Of a DNA stretch of 64,000 nucleotides, positions 41,856 through 54,827 are shown one piece after another; the first letter of the stretch is position 1; every line of letters starts with the position of its first letter. Location: IMG/VR virus record IMGVR_UViG_3300046492_000237, positions 28,690-92,689 of that record. One strand, 5' to 3'. The stretch is from a virus. Made by a program: the position numbers and the translations under genes. The notes under the pieces are model-generated. The model had not been told where the DNA came from. It made no database searches and worked only from the letters and a program-made list of their open reading frames with translations.

Positions 41856-42927
41856 GCGCCTTTTGCGGATTTATTGATGAACGGCTGTTTTCAGCGCAGC
41901 GCCTGCATTGCGAGAGCGTGGAATTTCTCGAAAAACAGCGGCGCGAGCGTGTCGTAATCCGGGCGGCCGATCAGCGGGAAACCGATCTCCAGATCAAGGT
42001 TGTCGGTCAGGCTTTGGGTGTGATCGTGGACGGCGGTGCATTCGGTTCGGTAATGCATCCGGGCGAACTGCTCCTCGACACCTTTCACCACAGCGACATA
42101 AAAGGTGCTCATTTCGAGGTGGCGGGTACCCTTCTCGGCGCCGTTGATGCGGCCATCAGCGTTGCTCATCAGGTAGCGGTTGACGGCGAAGGACAGGTGC
42201 AGCCAGATGGCGTGCTTGAATTGTTGCTCGAGAGTCATGAGGTTGCTCCGGGGTTTGTTGGTTGTTGTGCCCGCAGCCAGCGCGCGTATCGGCTTTCAGG
42301 CTGGCCCGCTGGCAGGGTACGTTCGATCATCTGCACCAGCGCCAGACGCAGCGGGAACGTGCCCTGCATCAGAACGGTGGTGCGCAGTTCGTGCCGGGCG
42401 CCGTTGGTTGCCTTGGCAGTGATGGCAGCGATGGCATGGAACATCTGGTCGGTCGGCTCGATTCCGTAGGAACGCAGTTCCGCGTCGACCAGCCAGCGCG
42501 CTGGGCCTCGATTCAGCTTTTCAAAGGCGGCCTCGATCGCCGGGCAGGTCTCCGGCACCATGTCGAACGACAGGGCTTCAGCCGGAGTGACCTTTGTATC
42601 TTCGCGGAATGCCATGGCGACCTATTCCTTTGGCTTGCTGATCGTGGCGAGGTTATAGCTGCGCAGCAGGTCTTTCTTGATGGCTGCGATTGTTCCAGCG
42701 CTGAGGCCATCGCGGATGACGACCGGGTTGATGATTTCGCGGCCACCCAATGCAGTCAGCTGGATCAAGACGCCGGACCCGGTCAGGGTATCGCCGGCCT
42801 TTTCGATTTCACGGCTGGCAGCAGCGTAACTGCCGGCGAGCTGGGCTTTCAGCTCGATGTTCTGGCGCGCCAAATCCTGATAGGTCGGCTTTTTCGGTTT
42901 GGTGCTGGACATGGAGGATCTCCTTGG

Positions 42928-42960: not shown

Positions 42961-44050
42961 TGTTCGGGCGGTGGCTATAGAAAGAAGCCTTCGATGACCT
43001 GCAGGGGAACGCCTGTCTTTTCGGTCCACTCAGCGGCGTAGGCTTCCGCTGCTGCCTTGGCCTTGACCTTCTGTTCCTCGTTGCCATCGGTGTACTGGAA
43101 CACTTTGCAGCCATCCCAGCCGGCGGCTTTCAGCGTTCTCTCTTGCTCGCGGCGGCGTTCGCGGCCACCGCCGATGACGTTCTGTTCTTCGGGAAGGCGG
43201 TAGCGGACGCGGGCGGCATAGTGGGAAAGGGTTGGCATTGGGTGTGGCTCCGTTGGTGGATTTGTTGATAGATCAGCGGCCGCCGAGTGCGTAAACCTCG
43301 AACTTGTTACCCTTCCGCCGAACGCTCATGGCCGCGCGGTTATAGCCATGGGCTGAGCACTCTTTACTAAGGAACGCATAAGCCTTTTTCATCGGCAGCG
43401 GTTTCGTCATTGCGTTCAGCTTGGCCGAGGTGGCGATCATGAAGTTCACGTAATCGATTACTGGCTGCTGGTAGGGCCGTGGGGAATGCTGCTGGGTATG
43501 CAGCTTGCGATGCTCCTCGCGCTCGGCAAGTTCGCCGATGGTGCCTTTATTGAGCGGATCCGCAGCGCGCCATTCGATGGCGTCGGACTCTACCCAGAAC
43601 TTGGCTACGATTACGCCCGCTCGGTAGCCGACCCATACGCTACTGGCCCCGGGCTTTTTCAGTTCTTCGATGGTGCGGAAGGCTGGGGCTTCTTTAGCCG
43701 GCTCGGCAACTGGTGCTGCTGGTGCTGGCGCATCGCAGGTCATGTCGTAGTGATCGGCGATCAGGGCAATGGCTTCGGTCTTGGTCAGCGACTTCGGAGT
43801 GGCGGCCAGATACTGAGCATTGGTCAGCACCCAGCGGATGCGGGACTTGCCAACGCTGTATTTGAATGCGCAGCGCAGTACGCCGGAAGTGACGCGGCCG
43901 TTCTCACGGTATTCGATGCCCATGGTGTCCACGCCGGATTCCTTGGCGCGGTTGATCATCTTGTCAGCGGTGATTTGAGCAGCTTCTTGATGAGTGTTCA
44001 TGGTCGTTTCCCTGTTCGGTTGATTGCTTGGATGGGTGAATCATACGGCG

Positions 44051-44068
44051 TTACTCAAATTTGATCAA
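44051..44068 (-). promoter_or_regulatory. Operator overlapping a sigma70 promoter (TTGATC-17-TATGAT)
   Basis: TTACTCAAATTTGATCAA. Confidence 0.75.
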
Positions 44069-44222
44069 TGCCCTTGTGATAACAATTCGTTCTAAGCCAA
44101 AAGCCCCCAGCCCCAGCGAGGCATATGCCCTCACGGCCTGACCGCGCCGCCGAACGGACACATTTGCACATATCTAAAAAAGTTCCGCGTCCAAAATGGC
44201 TAACGGACGACCTGACCGCCAT

Positions 44223-44827
44223 GGTCACCCGCCCGCCGACCCCCTCGCGCACCCAAAACGGAACCCCTCGCCATGGGTGGATTGCGGTCGATTTGAGGGT
44301 GCTGGTCACCCAAAAGGAGCGGTTACCGGGTCGGTTTTTGGTGGTAACCGGTTACCGGAAGGGCAAAGGTAACCATGCTCAGATATGAGTAAGCACACCT
44401 GTAAATGCTGGGCAGTTACCGGCAAAGTTACCTCCGGTTACCGCTACACGGTTACCTTTGATGCAGTTACCTCGAAACCGCCTGCAATTGCTGGGGTAAC
44501 CGATTTGCGGTTACCGCCGGTTACGCCGCGTATTTGATGATAGCGCCAGCAATATAAGGGGTAACCGAGGCATGTCAGTTTTGCGGTAACCGGGTAACCC
44601 GGATCGAAAGCAAATATAAATTAACCCTCGGAAATATCATCCCTGACATCACCCCCTACAACCCCCTCCAAAAATTACATGGTTATATATATCCAGTTAC
44701 TGGTTACCTTGACCCTTATTATTATTATTTATTGAGTATCTAGTGATATATATAAAGGGCTTTTTGGGGTAACCAGAAAGGTAACCAAGGGGTAACCCGA
44801 CCGCTTTTCCGGGGTTACCCGGTTACC
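44223..44827. repeat. Iteron cluster with AT-rich core; candidate replication origin
   Basis: 17 exact GGTWACC copies plus AGTTACC/GGTCACC variants around an AT-rich tract at about 44610-44765; non-coding; at the strand switch. Confidence 0.75.
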
Positions 44828-44889
44828 TCTGGCAAAACACGGGGTAGCAGCTTGCCAGTGCGCGCCGCAGGCTTGCTTGTAATCGCTGA

Positions 44890-45552
44890 ATGGTTAATCA
44901 TTCTTGGGGTACACCACCCAACCCGACGAACGGTGATTGGATCCCGAAGCCAAACCGCATGGATAACCGTATGATCGCCGGAAATCCCATTGACCCACAG
45001 GTGGCAGTGATGCAATCGAAACCGATTGAATACTTCACGTATCCCGAGCTGCCTGATCGTCCGATGTTCGAGTGCGCAGCACTCAGGGCAACCCTGCAAG
45101 TCGAGCGCTGTGCAGGTATGTGGACCGAGGCCAATGGGAAGAACCCGCCGGAACGTCTGGCCAAGTGCCGCAACTGCCCGATCGGCGCGCTGCATGCCGG
45201 GGAAGTGGAGTTCGACGTGTCAGTGCTGCGGGGAACCGGGATCTGTTCACGGTGCCACCGGGGCGGGATGCGGTTGATCGGGGGTGATATCTGCGTCAGC
45301 TGCTGGAACAGGGCTCGCGAAGTCATCGTCGGACGCAATGCCAAGGGCAAACCGCCCAAGATTCACCCGCCGCTGGCACCACGGTCGATCACCGTCCGGT
45401 CAGGCGGCCAGAACATCACGATCAAACGTGAGCACTCGGTCAGCACCGATGAGCTGGTGGTGGCCGGTTTGAGAGATTGCACCCGGCAGGTTTTGTTCGG
45501 ATTCAGTGCAACGAGAAAGGTTCCTATTTGCGTCCAAGGGGAGTTATTTTGA
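44890..45552 (+). CDS. Multi-Cys zinc-finger protein
   Basis: CRNC, CSRC, CVSC motifs; start uncertain. Confidence 0.65.
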   Translation: MVNHSWGTPPNPTNGDWIPKPNRMDNRMIAGNPIDPQVAVMQSKPIEYFTYPELPDRPMFECAALRATLQVERCAGMWTEANGKNPPERLAKCRNCPIGALHAGEVEFDVSVLRGTGICSRCHRGGMRLIGGDICVSCWNRAREVIVGRNAKGKPPKIHPPLAPRSITVRSGGQNITIKREHSVSTDELVVAGLRDCTRQVLFGFSATRKVPICVQGELF

Positions 45553-45953
45553 TGGAAGAAATTAAAAATTGCGCGAATTCCCAGAATCCGGGCAGCGTTA
45601 TCGACTTCGATGCCGAAAAACGTGCGCGCGAGGCTAAGTCTGACCAATCTGCGCAAGAACCAGTCTTCACGCTCATGCCGCACATCTGCCGCCACTGCTT
45701 CGGTCGATTGGCGAGCCGTTTGAACGATGGGCTGCAGGAGTACCGCTGCACGAATTGCGAGACGGTGACCGTGGCCCTTTCGCATGAGGAGGCCTGCTGC
45801 TGCGGGATGAAGATCCGCAAGCGCAACGGCGCCGGGCGCAGTGGTGGCCCGATGGTCGATGCGGGGATCCGCTGCATCCCAAATCCAGAGAAAAGTCCAG
45901 CATTTCCAAGCGCTTACGTCGCTTGCGAGGTGGTCAAAATCAAGCGCCCCTGA
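45552..45953 (+). CDS. Cys-rich zinc-binding protein
   Basis: HICRHCFGR, CTNC, CCCG; GGGAG before the ATG at 45552. Confidence 0.65.
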   Translation: MEEIKNCANSQNPGSVIDFDAEKRAREAKSDQSAQEPVFTLMPHICRHCFGRLASRLNDGLQEYRCTNCETVTVALSHEEACCCGMKIRKRNGAGRSGGPMVDAGIRCIPNPEKSPAFPSAYVACEVVKIKRP

Positions 45954-46040
45954 TTCGCAATCAGGGCGTCTGCAACAAAAAACTCTTATAAATCAACGTC
46001 ATTGCGTGCGCCGCTGGATTCTAGGGCGCACATAGGGCGC
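45948..46040 (+). repeat. Bipartite element, copy A
   Basis: CCCTGA-TTCGCAA-TCAGGGCGTC...GGGCGC-ACATA-GGGCGC. Confidence 0.75.
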
Positions 46041-46139
46041 AGATCTTTTTCGCTTAATCCGGCGCATTTGCTAAGGCATTGATCATATTTGATTGATATA
46101 CTGGCGCCCTTCGCTGCACTCACGATTCGGGGGAACACC

Positions 46140-46568
46140 ATGGATTCATCACCGCAACCACGCCTGCCAGTTGTGTACATCGCCGGGCCTTACCGCGCCG
46201 CGACGCAAGCCGGCATCGAGCTGAACATCCAAGCCGCTCGGTCGATGGGTCTGCAAGCCATTCGCCGTGGCTGGTCGCCGATCATCCCGCACTGCAACTT
46301 CGCGCTGCTGGATCTGGTCGACCCTGCCATTGGCGACAGCTTCTGGCTGGCCGCGACCATGGAACACATGCGCCGGGCCGACGTGGTGCTGCTGGTGCCG
46401 GGCTGGGAGAATTCGACCGGCACTCAGGCCGAGGTGCGGGAAGCGCGCCGCCTGAACATCCCGGTTTTCTACGCGCTGGACAAACTCACGGACGGCGCCG
46501 AGTACATGGTCCAGTGCGCAAAGATTCGTGACTTGGTCTCCGTCGTGATGGCAGGTTCGCAGGCATGA
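46140..46568 (+). CDS. Nucleoside 2-deoxyribosyltransferase-like (DUF4406/DUF1937-type) protein
   Basis: VYIAGPY, PIIPH, PGWENS.G...E...A...IPVF. Confidence 0.8.
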   Translation: MDSSPQPRLPVVYIAGPYRAATQAGIELNIQAARSMGLQAIRRGWSPIIPHCNFALLDLVDPAIGDSFWLAATMEHMRRADVVLLVPGWENSTGTQAEVREARRLNIPVFYALDKLTDGAEYMVQCAKIRDLVSVVMAGSQA

Positions 46569-48232
46569 ACACGACCACCCAACCCTTCACACTGCATCTG
46601 GGCGACTGCCTCGATGTGCTGCGCACTCTGCCGGATAACTCGGTGGATAGCGTCGTGACCGATCCGCCGTATGCGTTGCCCGGCGGTTTCATGGGCAAAA
46701 CATGGGACAACTTCGACGGTCGCGAGGATGCTGGGTTTGGTTACTGGCTCGCCGGCTTCACCGATGGTGAGGGCCATTTCCGCGTCCAGAAGCACGAACG
46801 CGGTTCGCACACTTGCGTATTCCAGATCAAGACTCGCGACGATGATCGCGCCGTGCTTGAGCGCATCAAGCGCTTCCTCGGCGTCGGAGTGATTTACGAG
46901 GGCGAAGGCAGCGGCAATGCCAACCCGCAGTGCGCATACATCGTCCAAGACAAGGAGGGCTGCGCTCGCGTTGTCGCCTTGTTCCGCAAGTACCCGCTGA
47001 CCGCCAAGAAGGCGCTCGACTTCGAGATTTGGGCCGAGGCTGTCGAGGAGTGGCTTGAGCGACCGAGAGGCAATCGTTGGCAGGGTATGGCTGACCAAGC
47101 GCGCGCTGCATCGCTGAAAGCTCGACTCGAAGACGTTCGCCGATACACGGGAATCCCTTGGTCTGGGCATAACTTTCAAGATTGGGTGCGCCAATGGGCA
47201 ACCGAGTGCCTTCGAGTGCTGAAGCCCGGCGGCCACATGCTGGCTTTCGGCGCTCCGCGCCAGTATCACCGCCTTGCGGCTGGTATCGAGGACGCCGGCT
47301 TCGAGATCCGCGACCAGATCATGTGGGTGTTCGGCTCAGGCTTCCCGAAGTCGCACAACCTCAAGGGTGACCACGCTGGTTGGGGCACCGCGCTCAAGCC
47401 AGCACACGAACCGATTTGCATGGCGCGAAAGCCGCTGATCGGCACGGTGCTGGCAAACGTTACGGCGTTCGGGACTGGTGCGATGAACATCGACGCCTGT
47501 CGGATCCAGACTGGCGACAACCTGAACGGTGGCGCTTACGTCGACGGCGGTCGTAAGTCGGTCTCGGATTCGATGCGTCAGGGCAGCGGCATGAACGCCG
47601 TTGGCTCATCGGCGGGCGAATACGTCCAGCCCTCCGGTCGATGGCCAGCCAACCTGATCCACGATGGCAGCCCGGAGGTGGTGGCGATGTTCCCCGCCGA
47701 GGCCGGCGCATCTGCTCCGGTCAAGGGCTCCGAGCCAACCGCCAATGGATTCAGCGGGTCTGTGAAGTTCAGCGGGTTGATTGGGCGCGTCGAGGGCGCA
47801 TTTCACGGTGACAGCGGCAGTGCCGCACGGTTTTTCTACTGTGCCAAGACCAGCCGACGCGACCGCAACGAGGGGCTGGTCGATCCCGGGCCGCAGTTCA
47901 AGCGCGGCACCACGCTACGCAAGGTCGAGAACACCGACACCAAGGGCAACAACCATCCGACCGTCAAGCCGACTGAGCTGATGGCGTACCTGCTGCGACT
48001 GGTCACGCCGGTTGGCGGCACAACGCTCGATCCGTTCCTCGGCAGTGGTAGCACCGGCAAGGCCGCGATGCTCGAAGGCTTCGAGTTCATTGGGATCGAG
48101 AAGGAAGCGCCGTACATGGCCATCGCCAGCGCGCGGATCTGTCACGCTCACGCCGCTGCCGTCGCCGCCGCTGATCTGGCGGACGCTGTCGCCAACCCAG
48201 TGCAGGCCGACCTGTTTGGGCTGCTGGCATGA
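46565..48232 (+). CDS. N4/N6 DNA methyltransferase with an in-frame LAGLIDADG insertion
   Basis: GDCL, TDPPY, RVLKPGG, HPTVKP, LDPFLGSGSTG; insert YWLAGFTDGEGHF. Confidence 0.9.
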   Translation: MNTTTQPFTLHLGDCLDVLRTLPDNSVDSVVTDPPYALPGGFMGKTWDNFDGREDAGFGYWLAGFTDGEGHFRVQKHERGSHTCVFQIKTRDDDRAVLERIKRFLGVGVIYEGEGSGNANPQCAYIVQDKEGCARVVALFRKYPLTAKKALDFEIWAEAVEEWLERPRGNRWQGMADQARAASLKARLEDVRRYTGIPWSGHNFQDWVRQWATECLRVLKPGGHMLAFGAPRQYHRLAAGIEDAGFEIRDQIMWVFGSGFPKSHNLKGDHAGWGTALKPAHEPICMARKPLIGTVLANVTAFGTGAMNIDACRIQTGDNLNGGAYVDGGRKSVSDSMRQGSGMNAVGSSAGEYVQPSGRWPANLIHDGSPEVVAMFPAEAGASAPVKGSEPTANGFSGSVKFSGLIGRVEGAFHGDSGSAARFFYCAKTSRRDRNEGLVDPGPQFKRGTTLRKVENTDTKGNNHPTVKPTELMAYLLRLVTPVGGTTLDPFLGSGSTGKAAMLEGFEFIGIEKEAPYMAIASARICHAHAAAVAAADLADAVANPVQADLFGLLA

Positions 48233-50697
48233 ACGCCTGCAGCTGGATTCACGATGTGGTCACGCTGGCCGATGGCCGCAAGATCGCCAGCAACAGCGAG
48301 GAGTGGCGCGCCGAGTGTGAGGCGCGCCACGTCCTGCGCATGAACCACACGGCGCGCACTGAATTCATGGCGTTCATCGAGCAGCGACGCGGCGCTTCTG
48401 CTGCCGAAAGCCTGCGCGCCTGCATCGAGGCGACCGAACCTGCCTACGTGCTGGAGCTGCCGAACAAGGCCCAGCGCAACGCCTATCTGCGCACGGTCGA
48501 GCTGAATCAGGGCGAGAACGCATCCGAGCACCTGCGCAACCGCTGCATGGACTTGCATGGCCAGCGTGAAGCCGCTTGTGCAGCGTCTGCCGCGTAACGC
48601 ATAATTGAGCAATGACGCCGTTATCCCAACGGCTAACGGTGAATACATGAGTAATTTTGACTGCGCTGGCATCGACCCGATCATTGTCCTGCTGATGTTC
48701 TACATCGCTGCGCGCTATGGCTTCCGCTGCTGGAACCGGCTGATGCGCCACCTCAACGTTCGCAAGCACGGATGGCCGCCAGAACACCTCGCCGCTGATG
48801 GCGACTTCCGGAGGGGCGGCCAATGATCATCCCAGTGTTTGCCTTGATGTTCTTGGCCCAGCATATCCTGCGCGGGCCACGCCGATGAGACTGCAAGTGA
48901 TGGCCGTCACCGGCCGCTTCCAATACGCATGGACCAACGTGCGGAATGTCCGTTCTGGCTACCTGCGTGCCCAGCAGTGCGATGACCGTGGCAAGGATCG
49001 GCTCTACTGCCGCATTCGGTGGCTGAAATGAAAATCCTTGTCCTGCTGTACGCGCTGGATCTGCCGATCGAGTTCGAGATTCGCCGTCACCTGCTGTTGC
49101 GTATCCGGGGGCTTCGATGAGCCTGACCGGTCGCACCAAGTACCGCACCGGCTGGTTCGGCTGGCTGATCCTGCAGGTTGAGGTGATCGATCGCCGCTAC
49201 GACGACGAGGGTGAAGCCATCTGGCGAGACGCCAAGGCTGAAGACTTCGCCCCCAACCACGTCCGCCAGATCTTTCGTGATGCTCCAATGCCCTACCCGG
49301 GCCAGCGCCCACAAACCGAGCAATAGACCATGACCCAAACGACCACGATGAAACGCCTGTACGCCGACGATGGCAGCTACGCCGGTGTCGCCGAAGTAAC
49401 CACCGAAAACTGCATGGTCGCGCTGTACCGGCACCGCCCGGGCGCCCGTATGGAACTGACCCGTATGTCCATGGCCGTGCGCCTTGGGATCACCCGCATT
49501 CTTCTGGAGCGCCGCGCATGACCGTCATGAAAACCGAGATCTTCGAAACGCTCAATCAGCGGATCACCGTCGAAACGCCCGTGGTCACCCGCGAGCAGCT
49601 GCACGCCGCGCTGAGCTGCTTCGTGGGGCGACTGGTTACGCCAGAGCTTAAAAGGGATATGCAGGTGACGGTCGCTACGCTGCTCGCGCCGAAGATCACT
49701 ATCGAGGAATGCTCGCCGCCGAGCAGCCTGCTGATCCACCTGCCGCTCTACCAGCACATCTCGGTCGGGCATCGTCAAGTACGCGCGCTGAAGGTCGCCG
49801 CCGTCATCCCGAACCCGCGCGGCATCGAACTGCACTTCGAGAACACCCGCTACGCGCCTATTCAGGTATCCAACCGCTGGAACATCGACTGGGCGCCAGA
49901 GCCGGGCGGCTACTACGGCCATGCCCAGAATGGCGAGCCGTTCTACATGAGCGCCGATGGCTTCAACGAGAACTACACCATGATCGAGGTCGGCGCATGA
50001 ACCTGCCCCGCGCGCTCGACATCCTGATTCCTCGCTTCATGACTGAGGACGCAGCAGTTGATCTCCACTTCTGCGGTCAATGCAATAAGCCGCACCCGCA
50101 ACCGGTCTGTTCGATGAAGGATATCGAACCCGGGGAAGTCTTCGCGGGCATCATGACCGTGCGGTTCTTCAACCTGTTCGGCCTGTCGCTGTTCCCGCAC
50201 TATGACGGCGTGATGCGACCATGGGTCAACCCACACGACAAGGCTGAGCCCTGATGGCGAAGGACATTGATGAAACTCGGCAGGACCGGTCGGCCGACCG
50301 CGACGCCATTCAAGCGCAGATGGATGAGTACCTGCGCCATGGGGGCCTGATCAGCAAGTTGGACTGGTCGGGCAAAGTGATCGGCCTTGAGACCGAAGCG
50401 CCGTCCGCGCCGCGCCAGATCCCAAAGGGCATGAACTTCAATCCACCGATCAATAGCGATCGAACGGCAAAGCTTGCTCCTACAGTGCCAGCCCCGGCCA
50501 GCAAGGCTTTGCCCGTCAAAAAGGTCGAGTTCGCTCCCATAGTGGAAATCGCACCGGCGGTGGTCACTCGCCGGGTTAAGCCTGCGCCGACCGCCACCAT
50601 CATCGACATCGTGCCTGAGCTGCGCCGCATCCGTGCAGAAGCCCAGCGCGCACTGGCCCGGCTGAATGCTGCTGCCGAAAGGCGAATCGCGTGACAA

Positions 50698-51935: not shown

Positions 51936-52749
51936 AAAAACCAAGGGGTATGCATGAACACTCAAGACAAGTTGAATATGGCTTCAGCACTCGGCAACAC
52001 CATCGCCGGGCTTCTGTCGGTTTCCCAAAACAATAGCTCTGCCGTGCAGGCATCTGTTTGCAGCCTGATTACCGCAATGGCAGCCAAGGCTCAGGGGCTC
52101 TTGACTGCTGATGAGCTGAAGATCACCGCAAAAAGTCCGGAGGATGTCGCCGAGATTGTTGACGCCTATCGAGGATTCGGTGCTGGCATCGCTCGCGAAC
52201 TCCTGTCCGCTGAGGGCGCATTCCACTCCTCCGACTGCTCGACCAACAATCGCGGCGTACCGGAACTGCTCGGCAAGTGCGACTGCTCGATCGCGCCGTG
52301 TGAGCACAACGCCCCAGCCGCCGACTGCCCGTGCATGAGCGAGGGGACGAGAAATCAGGGGTTGGGTCACAACATGAACTGCAACTTCGAGCACTTCCTC
52401 GCCTACACTGGTCTGCACAGTGAGTCGCCTGAGACCATCGCCAAGATCAAGATCGGCTTCGCTGATCAGTGGCGACCGTGCGATCTGGTGGCAGAAGTTG
52501 AGTTCGTTCCGGACGATATCGGCAAGGCCGCCCCGATAATTTCCAGCGCCGATCTGGTCGAGTACCTGAGTGGGCGATATCAAGCCGGCCAGATTGATCA
52601 TGTGGTGCGCGTCGTCAGCAGCGGCATGGGGCAGGCCTCGTTCTACATTCGCCCGCACAGCGCCAATGGCGTTACCTCGCAATTCTTCGCCGTCAAGGCC
52701 TGATACGCTCTCCCCGCCGGCCCATCCGTGGCCGGCCTTCCCCTGCGTC

Positions 52750-53321: not shown

Positions 53322-54827
53322 ATGGACATGAAACAGATGATGGGGCTCGACGTCGAGATCCCGCAAATCACCCTGCGTCCAATCGACAGCATGGTCGCCT
53401 ACCACAACAACTCGCGCACGCACTCGATCGGTCAGCTGGCCGAGATTGGCGCAAGCCTGCTGGAATTCGGCTGGACCAATCCGATTCTGGCCGATGCGCT
53501 GGGCACCGTCGCCGGCCACGGACGCACCATGGCCGCCGCCGAGCTGTATCGCCAAGGCAAGCAGATCCTGTTCCCTAACGGTTCGCCTATTCCGATCGGC
53601 ATGGTGCCGGTGGTCGACTGCACCGGTTGGAGCGATGCGCAGCGCCGCGCCTACATCATCGCCGACAACAAGCTGGCCCTGAACGCGGGGTGGAATATGG
53701 AGCTGCTTAGCATTGAGCTGACCGAACTGGGCGAGATCGGTTTCGACCTGTCGCTTACCGGCTTCAACGAGGATGAACTCGCCGACATCCTCACGATCGA
53801 GGAGCAGGAATTGCCGGACGCTGATCCTGATGCGGCGCCCGCGCTTGAGGACAACGCCGTTTCCGTGCTCGGCGACGTCTGGGTACTCGGGCCGCACCGG
53901 GTCTGCTGCGGCGACAGCACCAGCCTTGATGACTGGGATCGCCTGATGCAGGGTGAGCGCGCCGACATCTGCTGGACTGACCCGCCGTACAACGTGGATG
54001 TAGGCCGGAAAAACCGCCTGATGGATACCGTCGATGGCCAGTCGCGCGCGGCAACCGGCTCGCTGAAGAACGACAAGATGAGCGACGCCGACTTCGGCGA
54101 GTTCATGCTCGACTTCTACAAGGCCACGATCGAGCAGCTGAAGGCCGGCGCGCCGATCTACGTGGCGCACGCCGATCGCACCGGGGACATTTTTCGCAAT
54201 GCCTTCATCGCCGCCGGCTTCCACTTCAGCCAGACGATCATCTGGCGCAAGAACAACCATGTGCTCGGCGTGGCCGATTACCAGTCGATCCACGAACCAA
54301 TCCTGTACGGCTGGCGCCCGGGCTCGAAGCACAAGTGGCACGGCGGCCGCAAGAACAAGACCGTCATCGAGATTGGTGAGGGTGGCCCGATCAGCCAGAC
54401 CGAGGATGGCCGCTGGGTGATCAAGGTCGGTGATCAGGTGCTGATCGTCGATGGTCAGGCCACCCTGCAGGAAAGTCAGTCGTCGATGATCTACGAGCCG
54501 AAGCCGGCCAAGTCAGGCCTGCACCCAACCCAGAAGCCCGTTGCACTGGTCGAGCGGATGCTGAAGAACAGCGCTCGCGGCGGAGATCTGGTGGTCGACG
54601 CGTTCGGCGGTTCCGGTACCACGCTGCTGGCAGCCGACCGCATGGGTATGTCTGCCCGACTGATGGAACTCGACCCGCGCTTTGCCGACGTCATCGTGCG
54701 GCGCTGGCAGGATTACACCGGGCGCCGTGCGTGCCATGCCGTGACTGGCGAGCTGTTCCCGGGCGAAGGCGAAGTGCGTCCGGATCCTCTACCAGACGCA
54801 GAGATGGGCGATGAGGATATTTTCTGA
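53322..54827 (+). CDS. ParB-domain N4/N6 DNA methyltransferase
   Basis: EFGWTNPIL, AGHGR, AYIIADNKL; TDPPYN, HPTQKP, DAFGGSGTT. Confidence 0.92.
   Translation: MDMKQMMGLDVEIPQITLRPIDSMVAYHNNSRTHSIGQLAEIGASLLEFGWTNPILADALGTVAGHGRTMAAAELYRQGKQILFPNGSPIPIGMVPVVDCTGWSDAQRRAYIIADNKLALNAGWNMELLSIELTELGEIGFDLSLTGFNEDELADILTIEEQELPDADPDAAPALEDNAVSVLGDVWVLGPHRVCCGDSTSLDDWDRLMQGERADICWTDPPYNVDVGRKNRLMDTVDGQSRAATGSLKNDKMSDADFGEFMLDFYKATIEQLKAGAPIYVAHADRTGDIFRNAFIAAGFHFSQTIIWRKNNHVLGVADYQSIHEPILYGWRPGSKHKWHGGRKNKTVIEIGEGGPISQTEDGRWVIKVGDQVLIVDGQATLQESQSSMIYEPKPAKSGLHPTQKPVALVERMLKNSARGGDLVVDAFGGSGTTLLAADRMGMSARLMELDPRFADVIVRRWQDYTGRRACHAVTGELFPGEGEVRPDPLPDAEMGDEDIF

Follow-up and report, generated by a model that had tools for sequence, protein, structure and literature searches.

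A candidate homing cassette: a single-motif LAGLIDADG endonuclease in frame within a phage DNA methyltransferase

Homing endonucleases that lie within genes are normally tamed by an intron or an intein, and the locus described here raises the question of how such an enzyme can be carried in a methylase gene where neither device is apparent. Were such a copy to remain part of the finished protein, this would represent a third route, in which the element is accommodated in a tolerant surface loop. The window (the whole stretch of 64,000 nucleotides that was analysed) is part of the complete genome, 92.7 kb long, of a rhizosphere phage that belongs to the Pseudomonas phage Touem01/Dolphis type. 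The arrangement itself is not new, as it was published in 2023 for mycobacteriophage methylases. The gene and its upstream neighbour are composed as follows.

46089..46568, plus strand: upstream gene, DUF7768 / nucleoside deoxyribosyltransferase-like (Pfam)
46565..48232, plus strand: methyltransferase-endonuclease fusion open reading frame, 555 aa (open reading frame list, Pfam, PHROG)
46661..46708, plus strand: end of the N-terminal methylase segment, with motif IV DPPY at aa 33-36 and FM.K.WD at aa 42-48, ending at the left junction
47174..48232, plus strand: C-terminal methylase part, with the pre-motif V helix, the variable target-recognition region and motifs X and I

The 555-aa reading frame, which encodes a beta-class N6/N4 DNA methyltransferase, matches N6_N4_Mtase in Pfam (PF01555, E 1.2e-30, aa 199-521) and the DNA methyltransferase family phrog_67 (E 3e-75), and the best Foldseek matches of its methylase part are CcrM (6pbd) and M.BceJIV. 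The host methylase is placed as a CcrM-like N6-adenine methyltransferase of the beta class. In the alignment the invariant methylase columns include D33, P34, P35, Y36, F42, M43, K45, W47 and D48, as well as motif X (HPTVKP, aa 464-469) and motif I (aa 489-497). The start ATG of the fusion overlaps the upstream stop codon (ATGA), and the upstream gene is syntenic with Pseudomonas phage Touem01 according to the annotation of that phage. As judged from the alignment, the insert occupies the variable loop that leads from motif IV (DPPY...FM.K.WD) to the pre-motif V helix.

46709..47173, plus strand: the insert, aa 49-203, a complete single-motif LAGLIDADG endonuclease with a short linker on either side
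46724..47155, plus strand: span covered by whole free-standing LAGLIDADG proteins, aa 54-197 (representative search, conservation table)
46748..46774, plus strand: LAGLIDADG motif, aa 62-70, with the putative catalytic Glu69 at 46769-46771

A sequence-only reading of this DNA had flagged a LAGLIDADG domain in frame in the methylase, and the segment that it named, 46709-47173, corresponds exactly to codons 49-203. A profile of the family does recognise the insert (LAGLIDADG_1, PF00961, E 5e-17), with a match at aa 62-159 that covers positions 1-101 of the 102 in the profile. Free-standing single-motif proteins of 146-200 aa align to query residues 12-152 in the representative search, and because such relatives cover aa 54-197 of the protein, the 155-aa insert represents a whole endonuclease. 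It is a complete homing-endonuclease gene of the homodimer type (single-motif) that lacks its own start and stop codons, and outside methylases it is most closely related to homing endonucleases of the free-standing and intron types.

The putative catalytic acid was also read correctly as retained. E69, at the end of the motif, is invariant in the 60 embedded and 42 free homologues of the conservation table (60/60 and 42/42), and in the PDB phmmer search it is aligned with the acidic residue of the GEG/AEG motif in I-OnuI-family enzymes. G64, D67 and G68 are likewise invariant, G70 and K148 are each found in 59/60 embedded copies and K149 in 60/60, and the lysine pattern is the same in the 42 free copies. 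No degenerate copy occurs among the 60 cluster representatives of the embedded endonuclease, in which the catalytic and structural residues are constant down to 44% identity. Gln87 was considered as the equivalent of a catalytic residue of I-CreI and was dropped, being variable (33/60) in embedded and free copies. The label "HNH endonuclease" carried by the matching PHROG families is taken as a mislabel and not as a sign of an HNH enzyme.

Structure prediction, proposed earlier as a check, gave a confident LAGLIDADG core with AlphaFold2 (pLDDT 88-93 over aa 56-160), in which an alpha-beta-beta-alpha-beta-beta-alpha core is followed by two C-terminal helices. The insert matches the I-OnuI family in the PDB (phmmer, E 1.5e-16), and Foldseek returned I-OnuI, I-AabMI and I-TnaI. 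When two copies of aa 49-203 were predicted together the ipSAE was 0.69, against 0.00 for the best of three controls. Among proteins of solved structure, 20 of the 30 that are pairs of one chain attain this mark, as does 1 of the 23 that are single chains. The score may echo memory of solved I-CreI-type dimers and, similar homodimers having been solved, it speaks of likeness and not of binding. The runs agreed in at least 95% of contacts with a partner pLDDT of at least 81, and the predicted interface is formed by the LAGLIDADG helices with E69 beside E69.

That the insert could be a cryptic intein or intron, removed at the protein or RNA level, is suggested by its in-frame position in a conserved gene, as is usual for inteins, and by the His-Asn that ends the window copy. 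The sequence-only reading had pointed out that the insert begins with N and not with C/S/T, that the HN at its end is followed by F, and that there is no room for Hint domains, and these observations hold: only about 12 residues of the insert lie outside the endonuclease. Over 60 homologues the junction residues vary, the first being N, K or R and the end reading H (34) or N (21), then K, R or E, so that HN is not conserved, and the +1 residue is F or Y and never C/S/T. No Hint or intein family was matched in the 555-aa reading frame at E up to 1 in Pfam, no intron was matched in 45500-49000 at E up to 1 in Rfam, and the other-frame and antisense reading frames match no Pfam family. The sequencing runs listed as containing this sequence include no RNA run. 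Read in the methylase frame, the insert is open throughout and shows purifying selection over its whole length; between the window and its relative L085 it is 93% identical in amino acids and 76% in nucleotides, with dN 0.05 and saturated dS, and dN/dS is far below 1. In the related case of mycobacteriophage Taj the authors also found neither an intein nor an intron (PMC11855218). We regard removal of this kind as next to negligible in probability, and infer that the insert is never spliced out and that the product is a 61-kDa methylase-endonuclease fusion.

Comparison with the nearest endonuclease-free relative, the sibling phage L004, fixed the borders independently of the earlier reader. 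A complete phage and a sibling of about 95% identity that differ by the cassette constitute a natural experiment, in which the borders of the exchange are readable.

46708..47192, plus strand: block of 485 nt without counterpart in L004 (blastn HSP borders, base-level view)
46446..47296, plus strand: exchanged, conversion-like tract relative to L004 (mismatch positions, sliding identity, per-segment protein identities)

The left edge of the homology between the window and L004 is at 46707, and in place of 46708-47192 L004 holds 158 unrelated nt, which encode a 46-aa loop and junction codons. In a contig from rhizosphere run X4, 46673 is joined to 47193 across 186 other letters. The cassette thus stands in place of a conserved loop, and there is no clean empty site. 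The spacing of 10-30 aa that had been given as normal for this methylase family is only roughly right: the loop has about 10 aa in a Klebsiella phage methylase and about 75 aa in mycobacteriophage MooMoo, and the closest relatives have the conserved 46-aa loop, whose length is constant in 89/89 of those free of the endonuclease. That this loop is itself a decayed endonuclease was ruled out (hhalign probability 0.1%).

Mismatches to L004 are dense on both sides of the block. Upstream they extend over about 260 nt and reach the preceding gene, whose 3' end falls within the exchanged tract in the mismatch map; downstream they extend over about 104 nt. The borders of the tract are sharp, at about 46446 and 47296, and outside them identity to L004 is 93-98%. 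The same is seen in the proteins, where the nearest methylase (P0038, that of L004) is without the endonuclease and is 95-96% identical to the window in its distal part, but only 68% at aa 204-250 and 70% at aa 1-20. The endonuclease-bearing methylases P0002-P0005 show the reverse pattern, with 94-95% identity in the insert, 94% at aa 204-250 and 53-67% in the distal part. Linked flank types are found in four sister pairs, including P0005/P0056, P0006/P0045 and P0007/P0108, and L085 against L006/L062 provides a second sibling pair at the DNA level. The host phages are mosaic: over 13.5 kb, the window and L004 are separated by about six patches that diverge or do not align. Ordinary recombination could consequently have transferred the cassette with no nuclease at work, and the change may have been a gain or a precise loss.

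In the methylase tree the endonuclease-bearing enzymes are scattered among endonuclease-free ones, with at least six changes of insert state, of which starred branches make five unavoidable. One tight clade (99*) unites the endonucleases of P0001-P0007, whereas a single clade of the corresponding methylases, a group named post hoc, is rejected by the AU test (lnL lower by 213, p 0.0003). The reconstructed endonuclease and methylase trees thus disagree, and presence is patchy among close methylases. From these comparisons the cassette looks laterally mobile, and the window and its sibling give, to our knowledge, the first phylogenetic signs of lateral movement by a lone LAGLIDADG element. Embedded copies cluster in the endonuclease tree and may go back to a single capture. 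Over all pairs the mean identity is 51% for the endonuclease and 59% for the methylase core, the former being not better conserved, and the divergences of the two co-vary (Spearman 0.38).

No near-identical DNA donor was found: viral contigs reach at best 92% amino acid and 76% nucleotide identity, genome contigs gave one locus, in a Planctomycetales MAG (76%), and two metagenome scans gave nothing. Since the DNA of the best relative is only 76% identical to the insert, that exchange appears to be old. The pairs P0022/23, P0004/5 and P0027/28, which have the same endonuclease in diverged methylases, were set aside as proof of recent transfer because their N-termini are identical too, so that exchange of the 3' half would account for them just as well. 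In a search for the target site by synonymous conservation over 59 distinct endonuclease-free alleles no site stood out; third positions are degenerate throughout these alleles, and the most conserved 22-mer is the left junction, which gives at most a lead.

The sequence-only reading had suggested a resemblance to the ShiLan domain, and this link is wrong. ShiLan resembles the present case in its methylase family, its in-frame read-through, the absence of a splicing apparatus and a disjunct distribution that hints at homing (PMC9957025; PMC11855218). It is, however, an out-of-frame HNH element, whose 202 aa lie at another site and have no recognisable in-frame fold, the HNH being encoded in a different frame, whereas the 155-aa insert of the window is a LAGLIDADG in the methylase frame with its other frames empty. 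Judged by position and similarity, the insert corresponds instead to the LAGLIDADG endonuclease called "second" or "lone" that Taj gp79 shares with eight further methylases of cluster F; it was described by Gosselin et al. in 2023 (PMC9957025) and treated again by Arsenault et al. in 2025 (PMC11855218); bearers include Taj gp79, Wee gp78, Kersh, Akhila and Mantra (PMC9957025; PMC11855218). The methylase of Taj is 46% identical to that of the window over 92% of the protein (tblastn, E 1e-134), and the insertion point is identical, after FM.K.WD and before the helix that precedes LKPGG. The inserts of Taj, Wee and Kersh are 53-54% identical to the window insert over 99-100% (E 3e-46 to 1e-49), and that of Rhodobacter phage RcAqua gp52 is 35% identical, with junction columns that coincide with those of the window and Taj. 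As in the window, the Taj element is in frame, has no detectable intein or intron, and forms its own domain in an AlphaFold model. The differences are in the host, an actinophage for Taj and a Pseudomonas-type rhizosphere phage here, in the replacement here of a conserved 46-aa loop, and in the inheritance: for the Taj type the authors saw no strong case for transfer and called it vertically inherited, whereas in the Pseudomonas-associated clade it is scattered among endonuclease-free sisters, with linked foreign flanks. Thus the actinophage data suggested vertical descent, while the trees around the window suggest lateral moves.

The two explanations offered by the sequence-only reading fared differently, the non-splicing homing element giving the best fit and the domesticated module being less favoured. 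According to the latter, the endonuclease domain is kept for an advantage that it gives to the phage or to the methylase, whether as a DNA-binding module, a dimerisation module or a weapon against competing phage DNA, and is inherited mostly vertically, its patchiness being due to ordinary within-gene recombination. Purely selfish endonucleases often decay, and the strength and long duration of purifying selection, under which synonymous change has become saturated, together with the lack of degenerate copies, would be explained by domestication, as would the co-varying divergences, the possible single capture, the general mosaicism of the host phages and the vertical inheritance that was concluded for the actinophages (PMC11855218). 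On the other hand, the catalytic Glu and the Lys pair vary no more than they do in free-standing nucleases, and catalytic residues tend to be lost once a LAGLIDADG protein is domesticated, as in WhiA and the maturases. The incongruent trees with at least five state changes among close methylases also speak against it, as does the short, two-sided exchanged tract centred on the cassette, and relatives that function with almost no loop at the site indicate that the methylase does not need the domain. We therefore find domestication rather unlikely, though it deserves serious consideration.

A nuclease and a methylase on one polypeptide could also form a restriction-modification-like fusion, as in types IIG/IIC, where the nuclease restricts unmethylated DNA and the fused methylase protects. 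This idea was raised by Gosselin et al. and deemed unlikely (PMC9957025); LAGLIDADG sites are long, about 20 bp, and none are known in restriction-modification systems (PMC9957025). Given further that the closest methylases work without the domain and that its outside relatives are of the homing type, we consider such a function extremely improbable. The insert might, finally, be a dead passenger, left over in inactive form from an old invasion and persisting only because a frameshift or stop would kill the methylase. Its in-frame position does guard against nonsense mutations, but a reading frame does not prevent missense change, and both the dN of 0.05 with saturated dS and the invariance of catalytic and structural residues in copies down to 44% identity make this very unlikely.

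The insert is, in our view, probably a non-splicing homing cassette that is translated as a methylase-nuclease fusion with putative cleavage activity. Two fusion molecules would pair through their LAGLIDADG helices to give a nuclease with two active sites; CcrM-type methylases are dimeric themselves. During co-infection such a dimer could cut endonuclease-free methylase alleles in or adjoining the 46-codon loop, and the cassette-bearing allele would be immune as it is without this loop sequence. Repair from the cassette allele would then copy the endonuclease and some of the methylase flank, that is, homing with co-conversion, comparable to the co-conversion by free-standing phage endonucleases. 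The activity of the methylase is presumably retained in the fusion, because loop lengths anywhere between about 10 and about 155 residues are tolerated among relatives. A narrower proposal, which we put forward tentatively as a reasonable possibility, is that the cassette homes actively and independently of splicing, works only as a full-length fusion dimer, and spreads from phage to phage by swapping out the 46-aa loop, with its target in or adjoining that loop. If true, homing endonucleases would have, apart from introns and inteins, a third means of residing within an essential-looking reading frame, and in mixed infections the cassette might also serve as a weapon against sibling phages that have no endonuclease.

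The homing cassette proposed here shares features with several known systems. LAGLIDADG inteins, one of which lies in the same actinophage methylase family, are in-frame endonucleases in conserved proteins that spread by homing; the window insert differs in having no Hint domain and no junction nucleophiles and in being single- and not double-motif, and, unlike an intein, it would stay, so that the host protein would have to live with it. In the rps3 fusions of fungi the endonuclease is fused at the end of the host reading frame. These fusions, from the mitochondria of ophiostomatoid fungi (the I-OnuI and I-LtrI family), are likewise endonuclease genes fused in frame in a protein gene (PMC7902536), and the best solved matches to the insert are of the I-OnuI type, named "ribosomal protein 3/homing endonuclease-like fusion protein" in the PDB; they are double-motif monomers, whereas the window insert is single-motif and internal, with host protein on both sides. 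The free-standing phage homing endonucleases of T4, seg and mob, also do without intron or intein and act by a double-strand break and repair with flank co-conversion (PMC2988022, PMC2790892), and their endonuclease-bearing allele is immune through sequence difference, as proposed here. They are GIY-YIG or HNH enzymes with reading frames of their own between genes, whereas the endonuclease of the window, without start or stop, lies inside the product of its target gene, and offers a single-motif scaffold that is naturally fused to a DNA-modifying enzyme.

The fusion was found in the ORF list and by Pfam as a single open reading frame:

46565-48232, plus strand, methylase-endonuclease ORF of 555 aa

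The methylase domain (N6_N4_Mtase, PF01555, E 1.2e-30) spans aa 199-521, and LAGLIDADG_1 (PF00961, E 5e-17, aa 62-159) is nested in the same ORF with a nearly full-length match (profile 1-101 of 102). The sequence-only reading had described an in-frame LAGLIDADG endonuclease inside a DNA methyltransferase, to be abandoned if no LAGLIDADG profile matched; a PF00961 match was obtained, and the feature is confirmed as real, with the anatomy described. The flagged span 46709-47173 coincides exactly with codons 49-203. Two methylase motifs, IV (DPPY, aa 33-36) and I (aa 489-497), are intact, and PHROGs assigns the protein to phrog_67, DNA methyltransferase. The source virus record is complete (92,689 nt, direct terminal repeats) and the insert, with a G+C of 0.59-0.63 near that of the surrounding DNA, is its sole LAGLIDADG match. 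The methylase gene is flanked on one side by a DUF7768/nucleoside-deoxyribosyltransferase-like gene (46089-46568), syntenic with Pseudomonas phage Touem01 and overlapping it start to stop in ATGA, and on the other by a DUF7696 gene (48229-48597). A second N6_N4 methylase of about 501 aa lies about 5 kb downstream (53322-54827, plus strand, PF01555 E 1e-26) and has no LAGLIDADG domain.

A search of 1.84 billion representatives with the insert gave 3720 matches in three groups: free-standing single-motif proteins (146-200 aa, 40-47% identity, aligning over methylase aa 54-197), double-motif proteins of about 290-420 aa, and methylase-embedded copies, with 68 proteins having methylase motifs, the earlier set included. 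The endonuclease takes up all but about 12 residues of the insert. In the AlphaFold model (mean pLDDT 72) there is a confident LAGLIDADG core at aa 56-142, followed by two helices that are also present in free relatives, and a linker of low confidence at aa 38-53. Foldseek relates the methylase part to CcrM and M.BceJIV, and the insert to I-OnuI-family enzymes and I-TnaI; PDB sequences match the insert down to E 1.5e-16. Glu69, the acidic residue that closes the LAGLIDADG motif, is present in every copy, embedded (60/60) or free (42/42), and corresponds in alignment to the GEG/AEG residue of I-OnuI-family enzymes. G64, D67 and G68 are also invariant, while G70 and K148 are each kept in 59 of the 60 embedded copies and K149 in all 60. 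The PHROG families matching the insert, phrog_5046 and phrog_33155, carry the label 'HNH endonuclease', which is at odds with the fold found.

The claim that no intein or intron scaffold is present also held. Pfam gave no Hint or intein family in the 555-aa protein even at E 1, Rfam gave no intron match across 45500-49000, and the junction residues are unlike those of inteins and not conserved (N/K/R first; H/N then K/R/E last; F/Y at +1). The inserts of the window and of the DNA locus L085 are 93% identical as protein and 76% as DNA, with a dN of 0.05 (0.26-0.29 for the methylase parts) and saturated synonymous sites; the domain is therefore kept by selection as a protein in the methylase frame.

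The borders were fixed by the alignment to an insertion-free homologue that the same reading had proposed. The closest methylase in a collection of 5.8 billion proteins, P0038 (444 aa), lacks a LAGLIDADG domain and is encoded at L004 on a 93.5-kb IMG/VR virus. Two homology arms (blastn; L004 3433-6137 against window 43997-46707, 93.5%, and L004 6296-7737 against window 47193-48634, 91.9%) leave window 46708-47192 (485 nt) without counterpart, opposite 158 unrelated nt coding for a 46-aa loop, so the cassette is a replacement and not a pure insertion. The same endonuclease-free join is seen on a contig of an independent rhizosphere run, and the loop is conserved and of constant length in all 89 endonuclease-free relatives that could be parsed. 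With about 10 residues here in a Klebsiella phage methylase and about 75 in that of mycobacteriophage MooMoo, the site is, by comparison of homologues, tolerant of length variation. The 46-aa loop as a decayed endonuclease was ruled out (hhalign probability 0.1%). The MooMoo gp65 segment (L092:274-1902) is different and Cys-containing, and its short NRWQ.GA stretch, resembling the endonuclease tail GNRWQG.A, could be either a relic or a chance similarity. In RcAqua gp52 of a Rhodobacter phage (L003:2297-4030), which also has the embedded endonuclease, the stretch from DPPY to FM.K.WD is lengthened by a further insertion of about 27 aa.

The suggested link to the ShiLan domain led to the right papers and the wrong element. 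Unlike in ShiLan, no family was found for ORFs that overlap the insert in other frames or on the antisense strand. The counterpart is the 'second' LAGLIDADG endonuclease of Taj gp79 and eight other cluster F methylases, described as its own domain with no intein and no strong evidence of transfer (PMC9957025, 2023), and in 2025 as a lone LAGLIDADG that 'appears to be vertically inherited' (PMC11855218). By tblastn, inserts in Taj, Wee, Kersh and others are 53-54% identical to ours (E 3e-46 to 1e-49) and those of Rhodobacter phage methylases 35%, and the insertion point is the same. The feature is a Taj gp79-type lone-LAGLIDADG methylase insertion and not a ShiLan domain. The insertion type itself is thus already known, and what the window adds is new evidence of mobility, together with a ready pair of substrates, the cassette allele and the endonuclease-free allele.

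Relative to P0038, the window methylase is 95-96% identical over aa 251-555, falling to 68% at aa 204-250 and 70% at aa 1-20; against the endonuclease-bearing P0002-P0005 the pattern is reversed (insert 94-95%, aa 204-250 94%, distal part 53-67%). Mismatches to L004 are dense at 46446-46707 and 47193-47296 and sparse outside, giving a two-sided exchanged tract of about 850 nt with the cassette at its centre. A 99-row tree built from the distal part of the methylase places the window as the sister of P0038. On it, insert presence must change at least six times, and well-supported branches force five of these changes; the direction of change between cassette and loop is one that we infer. In the tree of endonucleases, those of P0001-P0007 group as a clade (99*) whose branches are very short, and an AU test rejected the six corresponding methylases, a group picked after the tree was seen, as one clade (lnL 213 lower, p 0.0003). 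Nearly all embedded copies lie on one side of the endonuclease tree, so they may derive from one original capture. Flank types are linked on each side of cassette or loop in four sister pairs, and L085 against L006/L062 is a further sibling pair at the DNA level. Flanks of the cassette type are similar to the consensus that the family shows in Klebsiella and Mycobacterium phage methylases, which suggests import of the cassette into the Pseudomonas-associated clade.

These phages are mosaic in general: over 13.5 kb, the window and L004 diverge in about six patches. Short divergent or unalignable patches are at 47755-47803, 41901-42200, 43301-43900, 48601-48800 and 52101-52700, one of them within the variable region of the methylase, so mosaicism occurs at many places besides the endonuclease. 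No near-identical donor DNA for the insert was found in viral contigs, genome contigs or metagenome scans. The single match among 185,579 species genomes was an embedded endonuclease, 76% identical (L090:6001-6483), on the 105-kb contig MKTT01000071.1 of the MAG 'Planctomycetales bacterium 71-10', possibly a prophage or possibly a mis-binned phage. Taking every pair together, conservation of the endonuclease does not exceed that of the methylase core, and divergence in one varies with divergence in the other; over long spans, vertical descent therefore dominates.

In the mechanism that we propose, the fusion would be translated whole with nothing removed, and two molecules would pair through their LAGLIDADG helices. 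Cleavage by the putative dimer would fall within or next to the loop-coding segment of endonuclease-free alleles, a segment absent from the cassette allele. Repair would then copy the cassette and its flanks, as when free-standing phage endonucleases spread by intronless homing (PMC2988022, PMC2790892). The predicted pair of two copies of aa 49-203 reached an ipSAE of 0.69 (best of three controls 0.00), a mark that 20 of 30 proteins solved as one-chain pairs also attained, against one of 23 solved as single chains, and is read as likeness only because similar dimers have already been solved. Contacts agree between runs by at least 95%, with a partner pLDDT of at least 81.

The protein pairs P0022/P0023, P0004/P0005 and P0027/P0028 have identical N-termini and endonucleases and a target-recognition region only 46-50% identical, which suggests swapping of the 3' half of the gene, the part that determines specificity.
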